64,000 nt of DNA from positions 12,738 to 76,737 of the forward strand of contig JAISAB010000002.1 of NCBI GenBank assembly GCA_031266915.1. Direction: 5' to 3'. A program made the translations under genes and the position numbers. Below the pieces are notes generated by a model, which made no database searches, had not been told where the DNA came from, and saw only the letters and a list, made by a program, of their open reading frames with translations. Below are positions 4,341-53,985 of this stretch, one piece after another. This DNA is from Rickettsiales bacterium (GTDB lineage: Bacteria > Pseudomonadota > Alphaproteobacteria > Rs-D84). Positions within the stretch are counted from its first letter, which is position 1. The number at the start of each line of letters is the position of its first letter.

Positions 4341-4415
4341 GCGGGTATAGTTCAAAGGCTAGAATGTCAGCCTTCCAAGCTGAAAATGCGGGTTCGAGTC
4401 CCGCTACCCGCACCA
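4341..4415 (+). tRNA. tRNA-Gly (anticodon TCC), CCA encoded
   Basis: Cloverleaf GCGGGTA/TACCCGC acceptor, anticodon loop CTTCCAA, T-loop GGTTCGAGTCC, 3' CCA. Confidence 0.85.
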
Positions 4416-4504: not shown

Positions 4505-4591
4505 GGGCGTGCGCCGGAGTTGGAGAGCCGGGGCAGACTGTAAATCTGTTGGCTTATGCCTGAGCTGGTTCGAATCCAGCCACTCCCACCA
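4505..4591 (+). tRNA. tRNA-Tyr (anticodon GTA), type II with long variable arm; atypical C8 and one acceptor-stem mismatch
   Basis: Anticodon stem-loop GCAGA-CTGTAAA-TCTGT, variable arm about 14 nt, T-arm GCTGGTTCGAATCCAGC, CACTCCC-A-CCA end. The 5' strand GGGCGTG gives a C4·T69 mismatch. Confidence 0.55.
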
Positions 4592-11437: not shown

Positions 11438-11695
11438 TTTACTTTCAATGCATTCTTCCCATTTTTTGTTGACGCACTTTTTTGTCCCAAGCAGACCCGT
11501 GGCCGTCAAGCATTGTACAATCATGCCGGATTCGCATACGTTGCTGGCGCATTTCCTGAACAATGCGTCGTCCAGATTTGGATAGCATGATTTCATGGCG
11601 CCAGTCGAAATTAGTTCGTTCGGCGCCGGGCTGTTCGTTTGCGGCGCGGCCCAGACGGCCGACGACGAAAATAAGAGAAAAATTAAAAATATCAT
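11432..11695 (-). CDS. Small secreted cysteine-rich protein (87 aa, signal peptide, 6 Cys)
   Basis: Signal peptide MIFLIFLLFSSSAVWA; preceded by the conserved structured leader. Confidence 0.5.
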   Translation of the reverse strand: MIFLIFLLFSSSAVWAAPQTNSPAPNELISTGAMKSCYPNLDDALFRKCASNVCESGMIVQCLTATGLLGTKKCVNKKWEECIESKR

Positions 11696-11872
11696 ATTTC
11701 AAACCTCGCTTTTCGTTCAGTTAAAAACCACCAAAATTTGGTGGTTGGAGGTTAAGAACTATAAATCAGTATAGCGTGCTTATTTTGCGGCAAGCCGCAT
11801 TATTCACAACCCTCCAACCTGATAAGTTGGAGGATTTTTTCGTCCCCGCGGACGCTGATTTCAGAGGTTCTT
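11696..11872 (-). promoter_or_regulatory. Conserved structured 5' leader (attenuator/riboswitch-like), subtype 1
   Basis: Gene-sense: hairpin CCTCCAAC/GGTTGGAGG; linker GAATAATGCGG; AACCTCCAACC; terminator CCACC-N-GGTGG-UUUUU; RBS; ATG. Confidence 0.65.
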
Positions 11873-12034
11873 AATCCTCGACGTCGGAACACCCGGCGTC
11901 ACCGGCAATGGTAGCATCTGTGAGATTTAAATCAATAAGATTTTTGTGTCAAGGCAAAAGGTAGAAGGCAGAAGTCAGAAGGTAAAAGGCAGAAGTAGGC
12001 AAGCTTGCCCCAAATCATAAATTTATTACTTCTG

Positions 12035-12129: not shown

Positions 12130-12378
12130 CCTGAAAGCAATGCTACAATCCCTGTGTCGCGGAGAATTTCTGCGATGGGGTGTCACAGCCTTGCACATGC
12201 GTCGAGAGATGATTGGCGCGCTTTTGCGCCGATTTTTATATCACGGCGAAAAATAACTCCTGACCGGGTCAGGAGGGCTCGTGAATATATTGAATAAACG
12301 GCACAATTCATGTGATTGTTGTGAACCTCCTGACCGCCATTTACCGGCGGTTTTTCGTTCGAAAAAAAGGAGGTTAGG
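12130..12378 (+). promoter_or_regulatory. Conserved structured 5' leader (attenuator/riboswitch-like), subtype 2, upstream of a cysteine-rich secreted protein gene
   Basis: Hairpin CTCCTGACC/GGTCAGGAG; linker GAATATATTGAATAAACGG; AACCTCCTGACC; terminator GACCGCC-N-GGCGGTT-UUUUU; AAAAAAAGGAGG-ATG. Covaries with the other copies. Confidence 0.7.
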
Positions 12379-13002
12379 ATGAAGTTTAAAATATTAGTGC
12401 GCGCAACGGCATTTTTGATTGCGTTTGGATTCGCATTCGCATCGTCTGATTCATTTGCAGAGGAGCCTGTAGAAGAAGCCCCCGATTGTAGTGGTCAATC
12501 CTGGTGCACTTACTTTACTGGCGGTAGACGTTGTGGTGGTGAAGATTGCAATGTAGGTAGGTATGGTACTTGCGAGTGTGTGGAAATTGTTGCGCAATGC
12601 ATTTGCAACGCCGGATATGAAATTTTTGGCGACGGCGAAGATTGCACTTGCACCGCGAAATGCGCGAACACCTGCCAGTCCAGCGGCACCACGGCATGCG
12701 CCATCCAAAATGGCGCCGGCACCAAGCAGAATACAGGTGGAAACAACTGCACGGGCAACTGCACGTATGGAGCATGCACGGTATCGTCATGCAACAACGG
12801 GTACTATAAAAATGGAAATGTATGCACGGCATGTACGGCGCCCGACGGAATCACTTTGACTAATGGCAGCAATCCGGCTATCGGCATGAATATAAAAAGC
12901 AAGAACAACGGAGTGAATGGAAGAACCGATTGCTATATAGAAGGAAATTTCAACGATTCGACCGGGGCATTCGGCATCACTGGCACCAATTGCACTTATT
13001 AA
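12379..13002 (+). CDS. Secreted cysteine-rich protein (repetitive C-x-C / N-G-T-rich modules)
   Basis: Signal peptide MKFKILVRATAFLIAFGFAFA; more than 25 Cys; strong Shine-Dalgarno. Confidence 0.6.
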   Translation: MKFKILVRATAFLIAFGFAFASSDSFAEEPVEEAPDCSGQSWCTYFTGGRRCGGEDCNVGRYGTCECVEIVAQCICNAGYEIFGDGEDCTCTAKCANTCQSSGTTACAIQNGAGTKQNTGGNNCTGNCTYGACTVSSCNNGYYKNGNVCTACTAPDGITLTNGSNPAIGMNIKSKNNGVNGRTDCYIEGNFNDSTGAFGITGTNCTY

Positions 13003-21609: not shown

Positions 21610-22475
21610 ATGTCCGACAGCATATTTATCATGTCGCCGCCGGACAGGTAATAGACTTCGTCATTGCAGCTGTTGACGCAATTGGTATAGCTGTTGCCGC
21701 CAAGCTGGTTCCAGTTTGAATTTGTCGGGTAATACCATCGGGACGTGCGGCCGTATTTGTCCGTTGCGCGAATCCAGCAATATCTGCGGGCGTGGTATTC
21801 CATAGTCTGGTCAATCGCGACTTCTTCGATAACGCGTCCGGTGCCGCCGGGCCGCGTGGTCGACGAGCATGTCGCGACCAGGAAAAATTTCTGGCCCAGA
21901 TGCGCCGCCAGCGCCCCGGCGCACAAATTCGACGTGCAGCTTTTGCCGCAATACTCGCCCCGATACAAACTAACGCTTACCAAGGTCCCGTTCGGCCCCA
22001 TTACCAATCCGGCGGTTTCGCCCGCGACGCCGCACATCAGTCCCAGCTCGTGTTTGCTGACGTAATCGACCGGCTGTCCGGCGCCGTTTTCGCACAGGGC
22101 GGGGGTCGTCACGCCGCCGCTGCGAACATAAAGGCATCCGTTTTCATACCATACCTTATCGCGGCCGTCGGCGGGAAGGCGCCAGGGCTCGGCCAATTCG
22201 ACGGTGTCGAACCGTGCGTCGTCGCCGGCCAAGACAGTGTTTTCATTTGTTCCAATGGGAATTCGCGCGGCATCCAATATGCCGGCGGTTATGTTCGCCG
22301 CGTTCGTCTGGTCCAAATTCTGGACGTTTCCCAGACCGACTTGGGTCGCCGTCACGCTATGCGGATTATCCGTGCGCGCGGCGTGCGCGTCGATGTACGC
22401 GTTGCCGGCGACATCAGCCCTGGCGTTTGCAACGCATGCGATTATGCAAATAAGACCGGCGGCGATGGATTTCAT
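21600..22475 (-). CDS. Secreted tail-fibre-like protein with Cys-rich C-terminal domain (long paralog)
   Basis: Signal peptide MKSIAAGLICIIACVANARA; same N-module as 21211; ATG at 22475 chosen (ORF tool start 22505 is GTG). Confidence 0.6.
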   Translation of the reverse strand: MKSIAAGLICIIACVANARADVAGNAYIDAHAARTDNPHSVTATQVGLGNVQNLDQTNAANITAGILDAARIPIGTNENTVLAGDDARFDTVELAEPWRLPADGRDKVWYENGCLYVRSGGVTTPALCENGAGQPVDYVSKHELGLMCGVAGETAGLVMGPNGTLVSVSLYRGEYCGKSCTSNLCAGALAAHLGQKFFLVATCSSTTRPGGTGRVIEEVAIDQTMEYHARRYCWIRATDKYGRTSRWYYPTNSNWNQLGGNSYTNCVNSCNDEVYYLSGGDMINMLSDIWL

Positions 22476-22665
22476 TTTTAACCTGTTTGACACAAAGCCA
22501 CCCACAGCGAACGCAAGGGTGGTTGGAGGTTAAAGACTATAATTTTCAGAAAATAGCGGGCTTATTCGATATATTCGCCGCCCTCCAACCGATGGTTGGA
22601 GGTTTTTATCGTCCCCGCGGACGCTGAAAATTAAGAGGTCTTTACGCCCCGCCGCAGGCCTTTGC
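22476..22665 (-). promoter_or_regulatory. Conserved structured 5' leader, subtype 1 (as 11696..11872)
   Basis: Hairpin AACCTCCAACC-atc-GGTTGGAGG; linker CGAATATATCGAATAAGC; AACCTCCAACC; hairpin CCACCC-N-GGGTGG; shared distal module cgtccccgcggacgctga…agaggtc. Confidence 0.65.
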
Positions 22666-22719
22666 CGCCCGCGACAAATATAGTTTAGCAAAAACGAGAA
22701 TGTAAATCAATAGGTTCGT

Positions 22720-52208: not shown

Positions 52209-52777
52209 TATGGGCAATCAGATGTATATGTAAAGCTGCCGGTGGAATCTGAACCAGCGGTGCCAGCCGGTATATAGCAGCTGTTGACCGATGTCGCACC
52301 TGTACCGGACGTTGTGCCGCCGCCCGAGCATGGTTCGCAAATGGAACCGGACAAATAAAATCCCTTGTTGCATGTAATAGAACAATTTCCCGCCGACTTG
52401 GTGCACGAAGTATTACACTCGTTTGTGCCGCTGCATGCTTGATAACGCTTGGATGCGCCATTTGTTGGCTGTGTGCAACCGGTTGTGCTGTATGTCTGGT
52501 CACATTCGCAGATGTTTGGGTCGCAGGTTTCCCAATATGAGTTTTTGCATACATAACCGTCAATTTTTGTTCCGTTCTGTTGGTTTTTATTACATGTTTT
52601 GCCATTGCATTCCGAAACGACAGAGCAATCCATGTTTGCGCACGCGTAGCATTGACCGTTGTTTGCCAAAAGAAAGTACCCGTGGCCGCTTTCGGGAACA
52701 GATGCCGCTGCGCAGGGCCCCGTGTTGGCAAAGATGCATAAAGCCGTGTATAAAAATATAAATCCTGATTTCTTCAT
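52205..52777 (-). CDS. Secreted cysteine-rich protein (signal peptide; C-x-C/T-rich repeats)
   Basis: MKKSGFIFLYTALCIFANTGPCAAA signal peptide; more than 25 Cys; preceded by the conserved leader. Confidence 0.6.
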   Translation of the reverse strand: MKKSGFIFLYTALCIFANTGPCAAASVPESGHGYFLLANNGQCYACANMDCSVVSECNGKTCNKNQQNGTKIDGYVCKNSYWETCDPNICECDQTYSTTGCTQPTNGASKRYQACSGTNECNTSCTKSAGNCSITCNKGFYLSGSICEPCSGGGTTSGTGATSVNSCYIPAGTAGSDSTGSFTYTSDCPY

Positions 52778-53050
52778 TCCAAACCTCCTTTTTTAGCGAA
52801 TGAAAAAACCGCCGGGAAAAAGGCGGTCGGGAGGTTTACGACAATCCAATGAATTGTGCCGCTTATTCAATATATTCGCGAGCCCTCCCAACCAAGTCGG
52901 GAGATATTTTTCGCCGCAATAACAAAAATGGCGCGAAAGCGCGCCGATTTGTCAACAGCGCATTGGAAAGAGGTCGTAACACCCCGTCGCGGAAACTCTC
53001 CGCGGCACTTGAATCATACCAATAGTGAAATGTTTTTACAAGTGGTATAA
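52778..53050 (-). promoter_or_regulatory. Conserved structured 5' leader, subtype 2 (as 12130..12378)
   Basis: Gene-sense: CTCCCGAC/GTTGGGAG hairpin; GAATATATTGAATAAGCGG; AAACCTCCCGACC; terminator GACCGCC-N-GGCGGTT-UUUUUU; CATTCGCTAAAAAAGGAGG-ATG; distal module ccccgtcgcggaaactctccgcggcac. Confidence 0.7.
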
Positions 53051-53123: not shown

Positions 53124-53672
53124 TCATGGCGCGAAAGCCGATAGCAGCGCGGACACGAAAGCGGAACTGCTGGCGTCAGTTGAAGATACGCACTCATTCG
53201 CACACTTCGTTGCGCAATTGGCACCCCCGCTAAGTGACCCGTAATAAACCCAGCCGGCATAGTTTACATTATCGGAAATTCTTTTCAAACGGCACCAGCA
53301 GTACCATTCGGGGTAATTTAACTCCGTACCGCTGTGATTTCTGACGATATTGCAGCTCGCAATACCGGAACCGGCGGCAGAGGTAAGGCTGCATACGCTC
53401 TGAATAAGGTAGCCTCTGACCGCATTATTCGGAGTATGAGAAGATTGATAAACAGTGTATCCTTTGTATTCAAGTTCCAAGCCGGCATAGTTGCTGCCGG
53501 AATTATACTGCGTGTAGATGCCGTCCGCATAGTCTTCTGCCGGGTTCGCGTTTCCGGCATCGCCGCCGATTTCAAACTTCCCAGTTTCATCCTCTAAGGC
53601 TAAAACGGCAAAAGCGCCGCGCATTGCAGATACAAGCGCCCATGCGAATACGGCCAGGGTTAATTTTTTCAT
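53124..53672 (-). CDS. Hypothetical secreted protein with several Cys (signal peptide MKKLTLAVFAWALVSA)
   Basis: ATG at 53672 chosen (signal peptide); preceded by the conserved leader. Confidence 0.55.
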   Translation of the reverse strand: MKKLTLAVFAWALVSAMRGAFAVLALEDETGKFEIGGDAGNANPAEDYADGIYTQYNSGSNYAGLELEYKGYTVYQSSHTPNNAVRGYLIQSVCSLTSAAGSGIASCNIVRNHSGTELNYPEWYCWCRLKRISDNVNYAGWVYYGSLSGGANCATKCANECVSSTDASSSAFVSALLSAFAP

Positions 53673-53900
53673 CCAAACCTCCTTTTTTTTTGCGAATGAA
53701 AAAACCACCAGAAATTGGTGGTTGGAGGTTAGCGACTATCATTGCAAATAGCGGCGGTATTCGATATATTCCCGCGCCCTCCAACCGAAACGATTGGAGA
53801 CACAAAAAACATGCACGACAACGCTTCGTGCCAGCGTGCAATGAAGGAGGTCGCTAAACCCCGTCGCGGAAACTCTCCGCGGCACAAAGATTATGCACCG
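53673..53900 (-). promoter_or_regulatory. Conserved structured 5' leader, subtype 2: candidate attenuator/riboswitch
   Basis: Gene-sense: CTCCAA/TTGGAG hairpin; GGTTGGAGG…linker GAATATATCGAATACCGCC…AACCTCCAACC; terminator CCACC-AATTTCT-GGTGG-UUUUUU; CATTCGCAAAAAAAAAGGAGG-ATG. Confidence 0.7.
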
Positions 53901-53985
53901 CTGCCATCCGCAATGCAAGATGTATTTTGCGCTGGACGCGCATGCCTTTTTCTACTACGATTTCCCCATAAATAAGGAGAAAAAT

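Follow-up and report, generated by a model that had tools for sequence, protein, structure and literature searches.

In the window, that is, the whole 64-kb stretch of Rickettsiales (Rs-D84) DNA analysed here, a structured RNA leader precedes secreted-protein genes five times; it resembles an on/off switch for transcription and seems to derive from a phage regulatory RNA. On sequence grounds, each copy has the look of a complete transcription unit, made up of a sigma70-type promoter, the leader RNA, the terminator T2, an SD and a start codon. The explanation that we favour, and regard as moderately probable, is that of a cis-acting attenuator, in which promoter and folded leader would form one unit of Xcc1-type origin and the choice between strands R1 and R3 as partner of R2 would decide whether T2 is read through.

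A common leader architecture at five sites had been claimed in the first-pass annotation, and all five are present as described there. A covariance model built from relatives matched them at 84.4, 79.3, 75.0, 72.3 and 65.5 bits (copies D, C, B, A and E, respectively; E <= 1.6e-13), no other locus of the 64 kb scored above 11 bits with this model, and the antisense strand at the five loci reached only 13-30 bits, which bears out the claim of a conserved, strand-specific structured 5' leader. The start codons lie at 53672(-) for copy A, 52777(-) for B, 12379(+) for C, 22475(-) for D and 11695(-) for E. As had also been noticed, the products are signal-peptide proteins, mostly Cys-rich: 5/5 have a signal-peptide-like N-terminus, and they contain 6-21 Cys each. 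The linker motif GAATATATYGAATAA occurs four times in the window (0.38 expected by chance), and copy E is a fifth copy in which a hairpin is inserted within this motif. The fold of the copy A leader has z = -4.97 relative to dinucleotide shuffles.

Copy A, on the minus strand, has a -35 hexamer TTGCAT (53913..53918) and a -10 hexamer CATAAT (53890..53895) that ends 6 nt ahead of the first paired base of P0; a promoter motif TTGnnn-N16-19-TAnnnT, ending 6-7 nt before P0, is found at the same place in 81/99 relatives. The 5'-terminal hairpin P0 (CGCGGA/UCCGCG, 53863..53883), whose sequence differs among copies, is followed by the 5' half of a pseudoknot (53846..53862), in which G1 (GGGG, 53859-53862, then a 2-nt linker) pairs with C0 (CUCC, 53846-53849) to give stem S1, with V5 (UAGCGAC, 53850-53856) as its loop. 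The P2 hairpin and its U-run (GCACGAAGCGTTGTCGTGC and ATGTTTTTTG) make up a terminator-like site, T1 (53803..53839), beyond which lie R1 (UCUCCAAUC, 53792..53800), the 5' arm pairing with R2 and the putative anti-antiterminator strand, and R2 itself (GGUUGGAGG, 53778..53786), whose partner is R1 or R3. Hairpin P4 (53751..53777) has GAAUAUAUCGAAUA as its conserved loop, which in the family at large takes the form of an AAUA/AAUA internal loop, and hairpin P5 (CUAU/AUAG, 53736..53751) leads to the junction strand V3 (GUCGCUA, 53730..53736), which is complementary to V5, the V5:V3 duplex being stem S2. R3 (CCUCCAACC, 53720..53728), the putative 3' strand of the antiterminator, has its last 4 nt within the intrinsic terminator T2 (AACCACC-AAUUUCU-GGUGGUU plus U6, 53699..53723); the consensus terminator scan called both T1 and T2 in copies A and B. 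At 53670..53683 follow the SD AGGAGG (53678-53683) and the ATG (53670-53672) of a gene (53124..53672) for a 182-aa protein with a signal peptide, 7 Cys and no Pfam family.

Against this map, the interval first annotated, 53673-53900, spans nearly the entire copy A leader, but the unit begins ~120 nt further upstream, at the promoter. The switch part of the proposed architecture is supported; the leader is about twice as long, however, and its pseudoknot had been missed. What was taken for a linker is indeed a conserved motif but belongs to the internal loop of P4, with the further hairpin P5 behind it. The terminator does not sit on the ribosome-binding site (RBS), as had been supposed, but ends ~15-25 nt before the SD; in the general scheme of the unit, a structured leader of ~150-205 nt (typically ~185 nt) and T2 are followed by 15-40 nt and then the SD. 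The CATTCGC/A-run segment is common to copies A-C only.

Copy B occupies 52775..53042 of the minus strand, with the promoter TTGTAA-17-TATGAT, P0 at 52986-53006, G1-V5-C0 at 52969-52985, P2/T1 at 52912-52961, R1 at 52896-52904, R2 at 52884-52892, P4 at 52859-52882, P5 at 52841-52857, V3 at 52836-52842, R3 at 52826-52834, T2 at 52803-52828, the SD at 52784-52789 and the ATG at 52775-52777. Copy C, on the plus strand (12144..12381), runs from a -10 hexamer TACAAT (12144-12149) through P0 (12156-12176), G1-V5-C0 (12177-12193), P2/T1 (12199-12248), R1 (12256-12265), R2 (12267-12276), P4 (12278-12301), P5 (12303-12319), V3 (12318-12324), R3 (12326-12335) and T2 (12332-12355) to the SD (12368-12373) and ATG (12379-12381). 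The remaining two are again on the minus strand. Copy D (22473..22710) comprises the -35 (22705-22710) and -10 (22682-22687) hexamers, P0 (22651-22675), G1-V5-C0 (22634-22650), P2 (22610-22623), R1 (22594-22602), R2 (22582-22590), P4 (22556-22581), P5 (22537-22556), V3 (22531-22537), R3 (22521-22529), a T2 with a weak U-run (22493-22522) and the ATG (22473-22475). Copy E (11693..11935) has its -35 at 11930-11935, -10 at 11908-11913, P0 at 11880-11905, G1-V5-C0 at 11863-11879, P2 at 11841-11854, R1 at 11826-11833, R2 at 11811-11819, P4 with its inserted apical hairpin at 11777-11809, P5 at 11759-11774, V3 at 11753-11759, R3 at 11743-11751, T2 at 11723-11746 and the ATG at 11693-11695.

Uncultured gut Alphaproteobacteria (Ca. 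Enterousia / Rs-D84) contain more than 100 further copies, almost all of them in the same orientation as the gene that follows; 109 sense copies were counted over the window and 99 loci, and additional searches yielded more. The relatives were collected with a search pattern that partly fixes the GGAGG/CCUCC and GAAUA boxes, so the invariance of these boxes is overstated. In this wider alignment, pairs changed on both sides are seen in R2:R3, R1:R2, S1, S2 and P5. R2:R3 is 99.7% paired, with 4/9 pairs changed on both sides, and R1:R2 is 91.5% paired, with 4/8 pairs so changed and the outermost pair missing in 44/110 copies. R2:R3 closes a three-way junction that encloses P4 and P5, the latter with 100% of cells paired and 4/4 pairs changed on both sides. 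The H-type pseudoknot joins V5, the 7-nt loop of the promoter-proximal hairpin, to V3, a 7-nt strand directly ahead of R3 and 100-150 nt downstream; both-sided changes affect 4/4 pairs of S1 and 6/6 of S2, the S2 anchor in alignment A4 having been picked by complementarity. A cognate V3 complement exists in 103/106 leaders as compared with 29% for non-cognate pairs, and the V5:V3 duplex energy is -8.2 kcal/mol for cognate and -5.6 kcal/mol for non-cognate pairs. P0 has a mean MFE of -9.1, as against -3.2 when shuffled, and 94 different sequences are seen among its 99 copies; P2 is optional, a T1-like site being found in 34/102 relatives. Frequent G-U pairs (for example, 24, 37 and 17 alignment cells) argue that the element acts as RNA on the gene-sense strand.

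Some further structural candidates were set aside. An internal promoter, with TTGAAT in the P4 loop as -35 and TATAGT in P5 as -10, was rejected because its spacing would differ greatly with the length of the P5 loop, and because GATTGT stands in place of the -10 in the CUGAC subtype. The palindromic AAUAUAUU loop is a poor kissing-dimer site, as its four central bases vary freely, and pairing of R3 with the SD means little when any CCUCC is complementary by default and the flanking extension is conserved only in copies A-D. The long helix between G1 (GGGG) and the CCUC of R3 drawn by RNAfold is broken by uncompensated G1 variants, whereas G1:C0 co-varies; a G1:R3 helix, formable in ~85% of copies, may still act as an OFF-state lock.

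The boxes R1/R2/R3, of the form CCUCCAACC / GGUUGGAGG / CCUCCAACC, show three-way covariation, with the variants CAACC, CUGAC, CCGAC, CUGCC, CAGCC and GGAGU/ACUCC. The two alternative states have predicted energies of -23.3 and -22.8 kcal/mol over 108 copies (pseudoknot and tertiary contacts ignored), R2:R3 being the better predicted state in 57/108. T2 is present in 101/108 copies, and its stem overlaps 3-4 nt of R3 in 89/101 terminators; ~10-20% of copies have little R3/T2 overlap. The covariation, the near-equal energies and the overlap uphold the earlier proposal of two alternative pairings for R3, with the 3' arm of the upstream hairpin or within the terminator, and they support a model with a terminator, an antiterminator and an anti-antiterminator. 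We infer that termination is modulated as follows. R2:R3 would be the antiterminator, leaving the gene ON; R1, an upstream copy of R3, would pair with R2 as the anti-antiterminator and free R3, whose last 3-4 nt would then form the base of the T2 stem, turning the gene OFF. The 3'-most G of R2, usually left unpaired by R1, could offer R3 a toehold for co-transcriptional strand displacement, and the choice between R1 and R3 might be set by pseudoknot formation, a protein on P4, a ligand or a terminated RNA in trans.

A same-strand, SD-preceded ORF follows, at a median of 55 nt past R3, in 93/114 pattern matches (111 inside model-confirmed loci). The gap is too short to hold a separate promoter, so expression of the downstream gene would depend entirely on read-through of T2. 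The genes controlled had been called a family of secreted-protein genes, which is mostly so in the relatives, but small XRE-like HTH proteins, an ABC exporter and others are found as well; Bro-N and Rha are not among the downstream genes in Enterousia. At two loci, orphan units were seen, in which leader and terminator are directly followed by another promoter and leader with no intervening ORF, an arrangement compatible with an RNA that is functional by itself. We estimate ~10-70 copies per genome, extrapolated from the five in the window, and the host genomes measure 0.75-1.0 Mb (PMC12306168). In the literature on Enterousia, Rs-D84 or attenuators of this kind, we did not find the RNA described.

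The first-pass annotation recognized no known RNA family, and indeed nothing in the window matched Rfam at the gathering level; the core nonetheless is, as far as model scores and alignment tell, a three-way junction that represents a diverged, below-threshold relative of sRNA-Xcc1 (RF02221). The Xcc1 model gave 27.2 bits for copy B, below its gathering threshold of 53 bits, and 37.0 bits for the best Enterousia copy (L047), with no Enterousia copy at the threshold; an intermediate phage copy (L126) scored 44.4 bits (E 1e-4) and bona fide members 61-70 bits. The model aligned end to end (positions 1-87) on R2-P4-P5-R3. Conversely, the Enterousia-core model had no match to bona fide Xcc1 under default filters; with filters off, it hit L165 at 21.1 bits (E 0.004) and L169 at 17.2 bits (E 0.035), both at the Rfam coordinates. 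On viral contigs, Xcc1 is located in leaders of antirepressor genes (Bro-N, Rha). An upstream hairpin loop complementary to the junction strand is present, by inspection, at 6/7 bona fide Xcc1 loci, as it is in the Enterousia leaders; this complementarity and the downstream box are our extension and lie outside Rfam's definition of Xcc1. In Enterousia, a second downstream box near the RBS had a frequency of 27.6% in cognate and 16.6% in non-cognate pairs, and no significant target box was found downstream. BLAST searches found no match for the phage-type leader among annotated phages, nor for the Xcc1 consensus in E. coli genomes. The unit probably arose from a phage-borne Xcc1-family core with C4-like three-box complementarity in antirepressor leaders; in the Enterousia lineage, a terminator would have taken the place of the 3' box at the RBS, and the unit would have multiplied before genes for secreted or surface proteins.

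The units could instead be stand-alone sRNA genes, whose promoter-to-T2, promoter-to-T1 or processed junction RNA acts in trans like Xcc1 or C4, T2 being a constitutive terminator and the downstream gene expressed by leak only. Each unit does have its own promoter and terminator, T1-like sites could free a short RNA with V5 exposed in a hairpin loop, bona fide Xcc1 loci show antisense-target-style three-box complementarity, the orphan tandem units lack a following ORF, and in Xanthomonas sRNA-Xcc1 is seen as a discrete ~88-100-nt RNA (PMC2996969). Yet V5, V3, R1, R2 and R3 are all partnered in cis, leaving no obvious free seed; in most copies an SD and ORF of the same orientation follow closely, at a nearly constant distance that leaves no space for another promoter; a constitutive terminator needs neither balanced R1:R2 and R2:R3 energies nor R3/T2 overlap; and the downstream target box in Enterousia is not significant. 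We consider this alternative unlikely, if worth keeping in mind. More speculative, and rather improbable in our view, is an RNA-only, self-referential network descended from phage immunity RNAs, in which units would release Xcc1-like RNAs that act in trans on nascent leaders of their own or other loci, with V5/V3 (>30 variants) and the R-box type as barcode; feedback or mutually exclusive expression of surface proteins could result, in an uncultured host with a <1 Mb genome that probably depends on other cells.

The label of riboswitch, also applied in the first-pass annotation, has fared poorly: no ligand has emerged, and the downstream genes lack metabolic coherence. On such an account, pseudoknot and junction would serve as an aptamer that binds a small molecule or second messenger, and binding would stabilize R2:R3 and turn the gene on. 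A leader of ~150-200 nt with a pseudoknot and a three-way junction would suit an aptamer; the invariant internal loop in P4, the terminator expression platform and the many copies per genome also speak for this reading, and riboswitches for second messengers typically govern genes for surface and secreted proteins. However, strong conservation is almost confined to the P4 loop and the strands that switch, the junctions being short or variable and V3 hypervariable, and the control of antirepressors by RNA-RNA complementarity in the phage relatives points to an RNA- or protein-driven mechanism. Rfam riboswitch models found no match in the window or the Enterousia copies, and we judge a riboswitch improbable. 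A DNA-level element, be it a mobile cassette with a promoter, a MITE, a site at which DNA recombines or inverts, or a row of protein-binding sites (the R1/R2 inverted repeat plus the R3 half-site), would account for the multiple copies, the inverted and direct repeats and the promoter carried along. It is nevertheless very improbable: G-U pairs and compensatory changes keep the helices in >30 sequence variants, including long-range V5:V3 and the variable P0, P4 and P5; several box variants coexist within one genome (copies A-E); antisense scores are far lower; and orientation is fixed relative to the gene, unlike the orientation-independent DNA repeat that had been named as evidence against the leader. 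Strand-specific covariation and fixed orientation likewise disfavour invertible DNA or an attC-like site, and to our knowledge known invertases need a spacer longer than the 55-60 bp present between the boxes. Leader-peptide (ribosome-mediated) attenuation, to which we give almost no credence, could draw on the 1:2 / 2:3 / 3:4-style arrangement, as in a trp-type attenuator, and on the SD-like GGAGG inside R2, but the leaders have no position-conserved start codon or ORF, and the sole recurrent candidate, a GUG 3 nt past GGAGG in 31/99 copies, is too close to the SD.

If the cis-attenuator reading is true, it provides a mechanism-level anatomy (pseudoknot, three-box complementarity and leader context) for the poorly understood Xcc1 family, whose sole annotation to date is that of a trans-acting sRNA. 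A phage antirepressor-type leader RNA would have been rebuilt as a Rho-independent attenuator and amplified within small genomes, in front of apparent surface and secreted proteins of the organism. It would also offer a rare handle on gene regulation in uncultured Ca. Enterousia / Rs-D84, and a compact, covariation-rich system in which co-transcriptional strand-displacement switching could be studied directly.

With Xcc1, the Enterousia leaders share the three-way junction, in which a G-rich/C-rich closing stem encloses first a hairpin whose internal loop contains AAUA and then a second hairpin. Both elements are placed in a 5' leader and point the same way as the gene behind. Near the promoter, both have a hairpin of the form GGAG-NN-7 nt-CUCC, its loop being complementary to the junction strand that precedes the closing stem, and a hairpin plus U-run separates the two domains. 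The Enterousia leaders differ in that the P4 apical hairpin is cut to 4 nt (copy E excepted), no 3' target-box copy lies next to the RBS, the closing stem shares bases with a Rho-independent terminator, R1 is a long, co-varying competitor, the genes behind the units encode secreted orphan proteins rather than antirepressors or symE, and there are tens of copies per genome. The C4 RNAs of P1/P7 and the CI RNA of P4 are similar in having co-varying same-strand boxes in the order target, antisense, target (compare R1-R2-R3 and V5-V3), located in the leader of the controlled operon, with specificity variants kept by three-way compensatory change; C4 and P4 CI leader RNAs reportedly cause premature termination, as Citron & Schuster 1990 and Sabbattini et al. 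1995 are said to have described. In Enterousia, however, the 3' box overlaps an intrinsic terminator and not the RBS or a Rho-dependent site, the Rfam C4 model (RF01695) found no match, and the c4-a1b1 model (RF03163) reached 16.8 and 17.2 bits, where 46.7 is the gathering score, too weak for membership. Processing by RNase P into a stable small RNA that works in trans is a further trait of the C4/CI type. Finally, a mutually exclusive terminator/antiterminator expression platform is predicted in the Enterousia leaders, and as in the pyr (PyrR-binding), T-box and trp leaders three mutually exclusive helices would decide an intrinsic terminator just before the coding region. The effector in those systems is a protein, a tRNA or a leader peptide, whereas the Enterousia leader, with no known effector, is set apart by its long-range pseudoknot, its phage-type ancestry and its regulon of orphan secreted proteins.

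All five copies of the leader in the window (start codons at 53672(-), 52777(-), 12379(+), 22475(-) and 11695(-) for copies A to E, respectively) carry the modules listed in the first-pass annotation, as judged by reading each site and aligning the five. The alignment contains a hairpin with a GGTTGGAGG-like 3' arm, the motif GAATATATYGAATAA, a AACCTCCAACC-like segment that repeats the 5' arm of the first hairpin, and then a GC hairpin with a U-run, the Shine-Dalgarno sequence (SD) and ATG. The linker motif GAATATATYGAATAA occurs four times against 0.38 expected; in copy E a hairpin is inserted within it. A covariance model (model R1) built on relatives from other genomes scored the five sites at 65.5-84.4 bits and exceeded 11 bits nowhere else in the window, and the leader of copy A is more stably folded than dinucleotide shuffles (z = -4.97). 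The CATTCGC/CGTTCG segment is confined to copies A, B and C, whose A-runs between terminator and SD differ in length (A9 at 53684-53692, A6 at 52790-52795 and A7 at 12361-12367, respectively). The divergent spacer separating units E and C holds, directly upstream of the unit E promoter, a 7-nt tandem repeat at 11951-11995 (AAGGCAG x 6.4; CTGCCTT on the minus strand), possibly a slipped-strand site.

The conserved unit is longer than originally annotated, reaching up to a promoter (TTGnnn-N16-19-TAnnnT, in 81 of 99 copies) that ends 6-7 nt ahead of the first paired base of the 5' hairpin P0. The stretch from P0 through R3, the last of three complementary boxes (R1-R3), has a median length of 154 nt (range 128-205). 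P0 is followed by G1 (GGGG, GAGG and variants), a 2-nt linker, the seven variable nucleotides of V5, and C0; then come the optional hairpin P2, an A-rich linker, R1, a short loop, R2 and a single G, the hairpins P4 and P5, V3, a single A and R3, and finally the terminator T2 with its U-run, 15-40 nt, SD and ATG. The CUGAC subtype and copies A-C have an enlarged P2 with an inner hairpin and U-run. This second terminator-like site, T1 (53803-53839 in A, 52912-52961 in B, 12199-12248 in C), lies between the 5' half of the pseudoknot described below and R1; it recurs in 34 of 102 relatives, mostly of the CUGAC subtype, as well as in phage relatives, and could release a short 5' RNA with V5 exposed in a hairpin loop. 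P2 is missing in short leaders preceding small HTH genes. In this subfamily (L006, L028, L029, L035, L036, L111, L112, L116 and others), R1 has 5 nt and the XRE-like HTH proteins 60-90 residues; since R1:R2 is weaker, these copies should favour read-through.

A degenerate pattern scan with one genome per species returned at least 119 stretches, and the matches listed derive almost entirely from Alphaproteobacteria of the gut or rumen that have not been cultured and bear the labels Candidatus Enterousia, 'Alphaproteobacteria bacterium' or 'Rickettsiales bacterium'; those few in other phyla were not confirmed by the covariance model and are ascribed to chance. With the model, the window and 99 loci together yielded 109 sense copies, and the remaining loci additional ones. 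Enterousia, of the order Rs-D84, has genomes of ~0.75-1.0 Mb without TCA cycle and respiration (PMC12306168); our literature search found no description of an RNA element in this lineage. A same-strand, SD-preceded ORF comes next in 93 of 114 pattern matches (111 in model-confirmed loci), starting a median of 55 nt past R3. A rough test assigned a signal peptide to 61 of these 93 ORFs, and many are Cys-rich. Pfam families were found for none of the five window proteins, save a sub-threshold DUF6520 match (copy C). Other downstream genes encode the small XRE-like proteins (sub-threshold HTH_19/HTH_31 matches), a protein that by eye resembles ABC exporters, and further products. Two leaders (L017, L076) precede very large repeat proteins of 751 and 1093 residues, whose FxxCxxLTSIP-type repeats resemble, by eye alone, BspA-type surface LRR proteins. 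Copies A and B are flanked by mutL on one side and yajC-secDF on the other, and their context is therefore chromosomal rather than prophage.

The wider alignment shows covariation for R1:R2, R2:R3, P5 and both pseudoknot stems. Across 110 sequences, 99.7% of R2:R3 cells are paired, with both-side changes at 4 of 9 pairs; for R1:R2 the values are 91.5% and 4 of 8, the outermost pair being absent in 44 of the 110 copies, and in P5 all four pairs change on both sides. The boxes co-vary three ways (CAACC/GGUUG, CUGAC/GUCAG, CCGAC, CUGCC, CAGCC), and a GGAGU/ACUCC variant alters in all three the otherwise invariant GGAGG/CCUCC, although the pattern by which the sequences were gathered partly constrained the GGAGG, GAATA and CCTCC boxes. 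V3 exists in 32-40 distinct versions, its complement being found in the cognate leader in 103 of 106 cases versus 29% of non-cognate pairs (V5:V3 duplex energy -8.2 versus -5.6 kcal/mol). In an ungapped pseudo-alignment of the two pseudoknot segments (A4), stem S2 (V5:V3) has both-side changes at 6 of 6 pairs, its anchor having been picked by complementarity, and stem S1 (G1:C0) at 4 of 4, one pair being GC in 58, AU in 12 and GU in 10. RNAfold, which cannot draw pseudoknots, gave an alternative in which G1 extends V5:V3 by pairing with CCUC of R3; 5-11 of 82 sequences disrupt this pairing. Because S1 and S2 co-vary, whereas G1:R3 shows no compensatory change, G1:C0 and V5:V3 are read as a putative H-type pseudoknot whose loop 1 has 2 nt and which lacks loop 2, a geometry that would be canonical.

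With R2:R3 enforced, the R1-R3 core averages -23.3 kcal/mol over 108 copies, and with R3 blocked and R1:R2 allowed, -22.8 kcal/mol, the former state being better in 57. When the terminator is included, the minimum-energy fold is R1:R2 plus T2 in 83 of the 108. Downstream of R3, 101 copies have a hairpin with 5 bp or more and a U-rich tail, the 5' arm of T2 taking in 3-4 nt of R3 in 89, and a terminator consensus scan called T2, plus T1, in copies A and B. These energies and the T2/R3 overlap therefore fit a terminator/antiterminator/anti-antiterminator design. The switch between alternative pairings proposed earlier is thus supported, while its terminator, thought to sit on the ribosome-binding site (RBS), lies upstream of it. 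In such a design, T2 would be the terminator, R2:R3 the antiterminator and R1:R2 the anti-antiterminator; the last G of R2, left free by R1, may provide a toehold for displacement by R3 while R3 is transcribed. Candidate inputs are pseudoknot formation, a factor that binds P4 at its AAUA/AAUA internal loop (the sole sequence element common to sRNA-Xcc1 through Enterousia), a ligand, or the terminated RNA itself.

On this modelling, the element is probably a cis-acting attenuator. Each unit is autonomous in promoter and terminator, as stand-alone Xcc1-like small RNA genes would be, and tandem complete units without an ORF after the first exist (L098:700-1160(+), L015:6880-7300(-)); such orphans could be remnants or RNAs with their own function. 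Beside the ORFs that follow most copies, we regard the small RNA reading as unlikely. A riboswitch, with a ligand as the deciding input to the same pairings, seems less likely still. The antisense strands of the five loci reach only 13-30 bits with the covariance model, and a repeat acting at the DNA level is very improbable, even with so many copies. Leader-peptide attenuation, which would share the terminator architecture, is the least credible reading; no conserved start codon or ORF was found within the leader. P4/P5 as an internal promoter was dismissed for inconsistent spacing.

At gathering thresholds, an Rfam search of the window returned two tRNAs and nothing else (4341-4412 and 4505-4588, the second low-scoring at 39.3 bits). 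Among Rfam families only sRNA-Xcc1 (RF02221) gave a recurrent signal; its model aligns end to end over R2-P4-P5-R3 with 27.2 bits for copy B and 37.0 for the relative L047, so that the window element stays below the gathering score of 53 for membership. When viral contigs were scanned with the same degenerate pattern, Enterousia-like copies were recovered along with distant relatives (L121, L122, L123, L126/127, L133) scoring 38-58 bits with the Enterousia-derived model; L126 reaches 44.4 bits (E 1e-4) with the Xcc1 model. The distant relatives share the upstream G1-V5-C0 hairpin, the hairpin with U-run and V3, and the gene that follows immediately is Bro-N in four loci and Phage_pRha in one. 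A second scan recovered bona fide Xcc1 members (61-70 bits, Xcc1 model), two of which the Enterousia-derived model, with filters off, matched at identical positions (21.1 bits, E 0.004; 17.2 bits, E 0.035).

Like Enterousia leaders, bona fide Xcc1 loci are flanked by a promoter-proximal GGAG-NN-7 nt-CUCC hairpin that carries in its loop the complement of the junction strand. They have a second box copy in a hairpin after the junction or adjoining the SD, their three boxes co-vary between loci, and the genes they precede are Bro-N or Rha-like. On viral contigs, the junction strand is complementary to two boxes in bona fide L135, L142, L144, L163, L165 and L176 and intermediate L121, L122, L123 and L133, where the post-RNA box often abuts the SD of the Bro-N or Rha gene. 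P1/P7 C4 RNA uses an a1-a'-a2 logic and P4 CI RNA a seqA-seqB-seqC logic, and the Xcc1 arrangement follows both; it is C4-like a1-a'-a2, of which our literature search found no mention for Xcc1 loci. Consistent with this leader position ahead of Bro-N/Rha genes, Xcc1 has been reported to precede symE in integron cassettes of Xanthomonas (bioRxiv 10.1101/2025.06.18.660453) and an ORF6N gene in phages of the APSE type (bioRxiv 10.1101/2020.03.17.996009), and to adjoin IsrK and C4 in a prophage of Xylella (PMC12189769).

Unlike bona fide Xcc1, Enterousia leaders have no significant downstream box (cognate 27.6% versus non-cognate 16.6%). From these comparisons we conclude that the window element, initially assigned to no known RNA family and indeed without a gathering-threshold match, is a diverged relative of Xcc1-type leaders, in which an intrinsic terminator, coupled to the closing stem, would have taken the place of RBS occlusion. 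The element's kind is already known, though poorly understood; the window version differs from it, and stands out by its size, by unusually clear covariation, including that of the pseudoknot and three-box switch, and by amplification in a very small genome ahead of likely surface proteins.
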